Shown in pieces: positions 61,907 through 62,381 of a DNA stretch of 64,000 nucleotides. Below the pieces are notes generated by a model. That model saw only the letters and a list, made by a program, of their open reading frames with translations. It was not told the DNA's origin and searched no databases. Position 1 is the stretch's first letter. Each line of letters begins with the position of its first letter. The translations under genes were made by a program, and so were the position numbers. This stretch comes from an uncultured Candidatus Saccharibacteria bacterium (GTDB lineage: Bacteria; Patescibacteriota; Minisyncoccia; UBA6257; JAUSGH01): positions 120 to 64,119 of the forward strand of contig CAYJQG010000001.1 of the NCBI GenBank assembly GCA_964372325.1, in the 5' to 3' direction.

Positions 61907-62149
61907 TTAATACCTCCGATACGTTTTCTCGTTGCGACGCTCGATTGATACTATAAAGACAGTATCGTTTTTTTTGCTGAAAATAACACGAAAATTTCTT
62001 TTGCGTGCACGAAAGATATCGTGAAAGCCACGCAACTTTTTTACATCAAGACCAACCTAACGCAATGAGATAATTTGCGCGACAAGAAATTCCAAAAGCA
62101 CACGCTCACGAGCGTTAAATTTCGAAAGTAATTTTTTAAGCTCCGCCAT
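61907..62149 (-). pseudogene. RelE/ParE-family toxin gene with in-frame TAG (62057-62059) after codon 30; partner of the upstream Phd antitoxin
   Basis: Minus-strand translation MAELKKLLSKFNARERVLLEFLVAQIISLR*VGLDVKKLRGFHDIFRARKRNFRVIFSKKNDTVFIVSIERRNEKTYRRY*. The C-terminal half matches the RelE/ParE signature. The ATG overlaps the last 12 nt of the Phd antitoxin gene. Missed by the ORF track because of the stop. Confidence 0.55.
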
Positions 62150-62381
62150 TTAATTGACGAATCGCTGCCAAAACGTCGCTCGCCAAAACGCCACGCTTAT
62201 TGATGCGGGTAAAATCAGCAACGGTTTCCCATTGTTCGTGAGCGTCGCTTTGCGGGGAAGAAATAACAAACACCGGCTTCGTACGCCGCACCACGGTAAA
62301 CGATTTCCCTTTACGGACTTGAGCGATATACGTATCAATGTTCGTGCGGAGATCTTTTAGGCCAATAATCTGATTGTTCAT
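62136..62381 (-). CDS. type II antitoxin, Phd/YefM family
   Basis: 81 aa. IIGLKDLRTNIDTYIAQVRKGKSFTVVRRTKPVFVISSPQSDAHEQWET matches the Phd/YefM fold. Confidence 0.7.
   Translation of the reverse strand: MNNQIIGLKDLRTNIDTYIAQVRKGKSFTVVRRTKPVFVISSPQSDAHEQWETVADFTRINKRGVLASDVLAAIRQLNGGA

Follow-up and report, generated by a model that had tools for sequence, protein, structure and literature searches.

The window, a 64-kb stretch of DNA analysed here as a whole, contains an uninterrupted Phd/YefM-like antitoxin gene followed by a toxin reading frame of the RelE/ParE type that is broken by one in-frame TAG. The question raised by this locus is whether the amber codon marks a toxin that was lost while its antitoxin was kept, whether it is read through, or whether it is an error or a single allele in the deposited sequence. 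The sequence-only reading of the locus had proposed the first of these, an inactivated toxin beside a retained antitoxin as expected of a decaying toxin-antitoxin (TA) locus, and had named stop-codon read-through as the alternative. The relevant features are as follows.

62136-62381, minus strand: antitoxin gene, uninterrupted open reading frame (ORF) of 81 codons (81 aa), Phd/YefM-like
61907-62149, minus strand: reading frame of the RelE-type toxin, 80 codons with one interruption, read as a pseudogene
62147-62149, minus strand: start codon (ATG) of the toxin, inside the 3′ end of the antitoxin gene
62057-62059, minus strand: amber codon TAG, codon 31 of the toxin (CTA on the plus strand)
62057-62149, minus strand: leftover 30-codon ORF from the ORF list, N-terminal part of the toxin
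62382-62419, minus strand: stretch 5′ of the cassette conserved by homology with L027, putative promoter

The toxin and antitoxin frames overlap by 14 nt, and the antitoxin frame ends with TAA. Translation of the toxin frame (61907-62149, minus strand) yields MAELKKLLSKFNARERVLLEFLVAQIISLR, the amber stop, VGLDVKKLRGFHDIFRARKRNFRVIFSKKNDTVFIVSIERRNEKTYRRY and the terminal stop, which confirms the coordinates and the codon number given for a toxin frame described as whole but for codon 31; this TAG is its sole internal stop and its sole defect. With an X placed at the stop, the frame aligns at 100% coverage with P0001, an intact metagenomic protein of 80 aa (E=1.2e-29, 74% identity). Since this match extends to both sides of the stop, the reading frame lies far beyond chance. 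On the plus strand, the gene at 60779-61882 encodes a 367-aa protein that has a Pro-rich N-terminus and one predicted hydrophobic segment and that matches nothing in Pfam. This gene is convergent with the toxin, the two 3′ ends lying 24 nt apart, and no terminator was detected there by the scan. Three terminator-like matches from a scan were discarded because they lie inside coding sequence and their number is in line with chance (3 found, 1.0 ± 1.0 expected). On the antitoxin side, the locus adjoins comM/yifB (62464-64000, minus strand), which has a listed GTG start at 63798 and a ChlI domain matched from profile position 46; the gene continues upstream of this start and runs off the window. 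A second truncation suspected in comM was dismissed, as the frame is open up to the window edge.

The assignment of the antitoxin stands at the threshold of two family models, PF02604 (29.6 bits, E=5.9e-7, marginal at a cut-off of 29.8) and TIGR01552 (21.1 bits, cut-off 20.8), and the match spans residues 4-49 only. It is thus the Phd/YefM N-terminal domain that is recognised, while the conserved C-terminal tail (WE-V-DFT...K-GV) is of the toxin-binding type. The gene is placed as expected of a Phd/YefM antitoxin, directly upstream of the toxin with the 14-nt overlap, and an identical overlap of 14 nt is present in the related loci L001, L004, L027, and L005. The same antitoxin family was found upstream of the toxin in 29 of 33 related loci. 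These 29 antitoxins comprise 28 different sequences, L004 and L027 having the same one (likewise of 81 aa), and the other four loci gave no usable upstream ORF. The family is characterized by the motif ...IVGLKELRENxExYI...SFxVVRRSKPVFKISP...WExVVDFTKIKKGGV..., and its member in L002 has a weak precomputed match to PF02604. With an uninterrupted frame and both matches at threshold, the proposal that a Phd/YefM antitoxin was kept is borne out.

The toxin by itself is not recognised at the family cut-off, as its frame reaches 15.2 bits against PF05016 (ParE_toxin; cut-off 23). This model is matched by 21 of 29 relatives, and a profile built from the relatives retrieves RelE proteins from the PDB with E-values from 1e-7 to 1e-3, led by Methanocaldococcus (M.) jannaschii RelE3 (3bpq_B, E=1.2e-7); E. 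coli RelE and the aRelE of Pyrococcus horikoshii (1wmi) are among them. Membership in the RelE/ParE superfamily by sequence is therefore carried by the relatives' profile and by the 74% identity to P0001, the window toxin alone being sub-threshold. A profile search with alignment returned 576 homologues, the best 120 of which are 77-89 aa long (77-81 aa for 118 of these 120 as aligned), are named RelE/ParE family toxin or RelE mRNA endonuclease (NCBI, JGI) and stem mostly from Patescibacteria. An AlphaFold2 (AF2) model of the intact orthologue P0001, calculated from the 120-sequence alignment (pLDDT 84.2), shows helices at residues 2-8 and 13-27 followed by strands at 35-38, 45-50, 53-60, and 63-71. 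Foldseek places RelE toxins at the top of the PDB matches to this model (3bpq, 1wmi, 9g12, 2khe, 3g5o; TM 0.60-0.71). Profile and model both match solved RelE toxins, and the earlier RelE/ParE assignment was correct. The fold is that of the orthologue model, not of the truncated window product.

Among the best 120 homologues, R47 is invariant and R49, R54, R71, R72, and Y77 are nearly invariant (96-99%), and the window frame still encodes all of these basic and tyrosine active-site positions. R47, R54, and R72 align with K52, R61, and R81 of E. coli RelE, which are established catalytic residues of that enzyme; Y77 is located outside the aligned stretch. An unbroken ORF across the full domain is what the toxin lacks, since TAG stands at codon 31 both in the window and in the metagenomic contig L046 discussed below. 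Judged from its sequence, the toxin locus is a pseudogene of the RelE/ParE family and not a functional member.

The sequence-only reading had also suggested a comparison with orthologous TA loci, and this comparison gives the stop its direction. The closest intact toxin orthologues, with 75% amino acid identity, come from groundwater Patescibacteria/Saccharibacteria metagenome-assembled genomes (MAGs). Nearest to the window are two loci from Hainich groundwater metagenomes, L001 and L004, together with L027, which belongs to a 'Candidatus Saccharibacteria' MAG. Around codon 31 the window reads TTGCGTTAGGTTGGT as opposed to TTACGCTGGATGGGT in L027, L001, and L004. The orthologues carry TGG (Trp) at codon 31, from which the TAG of the window differs by one G>A transition (C>T on the plus strand at 62058). 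About 40 relatives, from metagenome and GTDB contigs, were read as DNA, a route able to reveal pseudogenes, and none of them has an in-frame stop, all frames being unbroken over 77-84 codons. Thus, the stop occurs in this genome alone and is no conserved feature of the family.

The age of the lesion can be judged from the divergence between the window and L027. The antitoxin has a dN/dS ratio (Nei-Gojobori) of 0.15 and the toxin one of 0.12, the latter falling to 0.08 when only codons 32-80, past the stop, are compared. With L005 as the outgroup, the toxin shows five derived amino acid changes on the window branch, the stop included, and seven on the L027 branch; the corresponding numbers for the antitoxin are five and six. 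Neither a second lesion in the toxin frame nor a raised dN/dS was found, and with so recent a lesion nothing else in the sequence attests decay. Low dN/dS without an excess of changes on the window branch indicates that purifying selection acted on the toxin for essentially all of this divergence and that the nonsense mutation is recent; on these sequence comparisons, there is no sign of a long period of relaxed constraint. One of the changes derived in the window is G51R (toxin codon 51, 61997-61999), at a glycine that is kept in 110 of 120 homologues and forms part of the turn joining strands 2 and 3. At this position, L001 (274-276) has Val, and L004 and L027 (2310-2312 in the latter) have Gly. 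Such substitutions at the residue-51 turn could hint at attenuating natural variation, a hint that proves nothing.

A toxin frame that is otherwise perfect and under purifying selection is also what an error in a functional gene would leave. The TAG could accordingly be a sequencing or consensus artefact, or only one allele of a polymorphic population, in which case most or many of the cells would harbor an intact TGG toxin and a functional TA module. The contig derives from an assembly of the metagenome type, whose consensus can mask variants, and natural allelic variation does exist in this toxin, the near-identical L001 and L004/L027 differing by V and G at the conserved Gly51. Against this, the Logan contig L046 (run ERR4904390), which was found by an exact-protein look-up of the neighbouring 367-aa gene and reaches past the toxin into antitoxin sequence, agrees with the window at 100% identity along 499 nt, CTA/TAG included. 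It may come from the same reads as the deposited assembly, which leaves room for a polymorphism, minority or majority, in the population. Because this independent Logan assembly agrees at the site, an artefact of assembler or consensus is unlikely. A G>A change outside a homopolymer is also not a typical Illumina or assembler error, and no alternative contig with TGG emerged from the exact look-ups. Those with the antitoxin and the 30-aa N-terminal ORF returned no further strains or assemblies, and that with PNPase the same Logan contig only. Taken as a whole, an artefact or one allele of a polymorphic population is an unlikely explanation of the TAG.

If the codon is real, it might still be translated, whether through a suppressor tRNA, recoding across the whole genome, or a programmed leaky stop, yielding full-length toxin at a possibly deliberately low dose. 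The frame downstream of the stop keeps all conserved catalytic positions. Column 31 of the family is variable (T, L, F, I, Y, V, M, W, and Q among 120 homologues) and thus tolerates residues such as Y, Q, or W, so that a read-through product would probably fold and any such toxin would probably be active. The use of TAG in the window speaks against its translation. Stop codons were counted for 54 non-overlapping ORFs of at least 100 aa, of which 31 end in TAA, 17 in TAG, and six in TGA. Nine of the ten TAG-ended ORFs scanned with Pfam are recognisable, namely as rpsD, an enzyme with the EPSP-synthase fold, metK, an M50 protease, a class II aminoacyl-tRNA synthetase, mreB, dnaG, rpoD, and the TAG-terminated comM, which directly adjoins the TA locus. 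Their Pfam profiles are mostly complete within a few residues of the TAG (e.g. EPSP_synthase 417/417, HGTP_anticodon 92/94, Sigma70_r4 49/50, and Mg_chelatase_C 94/94), and none of these ORFs contains an internal TAG.

No other gene in the window has an in-frame TAG. When the window was scanned, outside the long ORFs, for frames that one stop divides, the toxin was the sole gene-like case. Neither a suppressor or pyrrolysine tRNA nor a tRNA-CUA is present in the 64-kb window, the tRNAs there being Ser(TGA) and Pro(GGG). A TAG-reassigned genome was consequently rejected on the grounds that TAG closes 17 of the 54 long ORFs, with Pfam domains complete at these stops, and that no other split gene exists in the window. 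The sequence-only reading had proposed to look for frequent in-frame TAG as a sign of recoding; TAG is instead the normal terminator of conserved genes here. With this usage, and with no stop conserved in any of the about 40 relatives, the read-through alternative of that reading was rejected, and the TGG of the orthologues makes the TAG a simple one-step mutation. Read-through in any of these forms is highly improbable. Rare near-cognate read-through would probably give an active product, but at trace level and with the antitoxin present.

The favoured explanation, to which a probability of about 0.8 is assigned, is a recent nonsense pseudogene of a RelE-type toxin whose antitoxin is kept, within a known TA family. 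It is supported by TGG at codon 31 of the orthologues, normal TAG usage, and intact relatives, and with them the earlier claim of an inactivated toxin beside a retained antitoxin is upheld. The cassette would accordingly represent a chromosomal type II TA system of a family common in Patescibacteria (CPR), in which the intact toxin is predicted to be a small, ribosome-dependent mRNA endonuclease of the RelE type that overlaps its upstream Phd/YefM-like antitoxin. A single TGG>TAG mutation would recently have knocked out the toxin in this genome. In the orthologue model, residue 31 is located in the loop that connects helix 2 to strand 1, and the 30-residue product spans helices 1 and 2 only. 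The β-sheet is absent from it, and R47, R54, R72, and Y77 are all encoded downstream of the stop. Translation that ends after 30 residues should therefore produce neither the sheet nor the conserved catalytic Arg/Tyr residues and hence no active toxin. The shared promoter probably continues to drive the antitoxin, which may be a relic awaiting decay or may act as free antitoxin that represses its own promoter and neutralises related incoming toxins.

It could also be supposed that the two halves of the toxin work separately, the 30-aa helical peptide or a 42-aa C-terminal fragment re-initiated at TTG 62035 serving as a toxin fragment, decoy, or regulator. Both sub-ORFs exist, and the N-terminal one retains its coupled start overlapping the antitoxin. 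The TTG at 62035, however, is not preceded by a Shine-Dalgarno-like sequence, and the 42-aa fragment is devoid of strand 1, of the two helices before it, and of the invariant KK (37-38). Moreover, not one of the relatives shows a two-ORF organisation, and conservation gives no sign that either fragment is a unit of its own, which leaves this idea barely credible.

The antitoxin and the toxin are presumably co-transcribed, and the candidate for their promoter lies within 62382-62419. Here, TTGACT (62411-62416) and TAACTT (62388-62393) are separated by a 17-nt spacer. In the alignment with L027, the pattern CTATTGAC...CTTCCGGT.AACTT..TAGTATG is conserved and nucleotide homology ends at 62419, so that this stretch can be regarded as a putative promoter. 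A consensus promoter scan gave no sigma-70-type site above threshold near the operon, and an inverted-repeat search upstream of the operon found no operator-like repeat. The ATG of the antitoxin has no Shine-Dalgarno sequence in front of it, and the mRNA of the cassette may be leaderless.

Nucleotide homology with the closest relatives is confined to the TA unit itself. L027 and L004 share 79.5% DNA identity with the window over 61917-62419 only (antitoxin, toxin, and 38 nt upstream), which corresponds to 1890-2392 in L027. Synteny with the closest orthologue was dismissed for this reason. In the window the unit is flanked by comM and the Pro-rich membrane protein, in L027 by an exonuclease-like gene and a 23S rRNA-IVP gene. 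With unrelated flanking genes and homology restricted to antitoxin, toxin, and the short upstream stretch, the unit behaves as a cassette, and it was found in unrelated genomic contexts among the relatives. From these comparisons, the TA cassette appears to be mobile.

This behavior bears on a further interpretation, according to which the amber codon leaks and thereby keeps the toxin dose very low, or the allele was selected for a toxin-free antitoxin (anti-addiction). The anti-addiction variant fits the unrelated genomic contexts in the relatives and the allelic variation of Gly51 in the sister sequences. Leaky stop or selected allele, such a role for the mutation is considered very unlikely. 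If anti-addiction were true, the free antitoxin would shield a small-genome bacterium from homologous RelE cassettes on mobile elements.

The window harbors a second type II TA pair (7460-7952, plus strand), which is apparently intact. It consists of a ParD/RHH-like antitoxin (about 7460-7690; PF03693, E=1.2e-5) and a RelE/HigB-like toxin downstream that overlaps it (about 7683-7952; PF05015, short of the cut-off at E=1.9e-4). In addition, a GC-rich perfect palindrome, GCCTGCCTGCCGGCAGGCAGGC, occurs in nine intergenic regions (29 strand-hits versus 0.28 expected), and some copies are flanked by the inverted arms CTACGAAATACG and CGTATTTCGTAG. Judged from its sequence, it resembles either a REP/MITE-like element or a hairpin terminator shared between sites. 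Its copies are listed in the following line.

266-285, 3505-3524, 6121-6136, 9378-9399, 12013-12028, 15583-15598, 28090-28105, 32856-32875, 54302-54321: copies of the palindrome GCCTGCCTGCCGGCAGGCAGGC

Compared with characterized systems, the toxin most closely resembles those of the RelBE type, e.g. RelE3 (3bpq), aRelE (1wmi), E. coli RelE (4v7k/4fxe), and M. tuberculosis RelE1/RelE2. The orthologue model displays the same fold, with a pair of N-terminal helices ahead of a four-stranded antiparallel sheet. Conserved basic residues line up with K52, R61, and R81 of E. coli RelE, and the protein of about 80 aa is encoded downstream of and overlapping the antitoxin. It differs in length (80 aa versus 95 aa for E. 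coli RelE) and in its partner, since RelBE systems employ the RHH antitoxin RelB whereas a Phd/YefM-like antitoxin is found here. Unlike the RelBE toxins, the toxin of the window is cut short at residue 31 by its amber codon, and its likeness to them is known from sequence and model. With the YefM-YoeB/Phd-Doc class, the locus shares the N-terminus of the antitoxin (PF02604/TIGR01552) and the antitoxin-first order with an overlapping toxin of the RelE/ParE superfamily, but the toxin profile matches RelE proper and not YoeB.

Orphan antitoxins that outlast their toxins have been described, e.g. for a parE pseudogene in Caulobacter that leaves ParD unpaired, for a frameshift in Shigella yacB, and for orphan antitoxins of Klebsiella, and their discussed fates are those of a remnant or of an anti-addiction factor (PMC7354431). 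As in such decayed TA loci, the toxin is disabled by a premature stop and the antitoxin ORF is whole. The present case differs by its single, very recent nonsense mutation without further decay and by its host, an uncultured, groundwater-type, Patescibacteria-like organism known from sequence, whose placement is drawn from gene content and from the relatives of the cassette. Both the phenomenon and the RelE subfamily are already well known, the latter being abundant in Patescibacteria and annotated in public databases.

For annotation, 61907-62149 should be entered as a RelE-family pseudogene and 62136-62381 as an orphaned Phd/YefM-like antitoxin, and the locus is not to be read as a sign of an alternative genetic code. 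In an uncultured genome of the Patescibacteria type, it captures how TA decay begins in nature, with the toxin lost first and the antitoxin kept.
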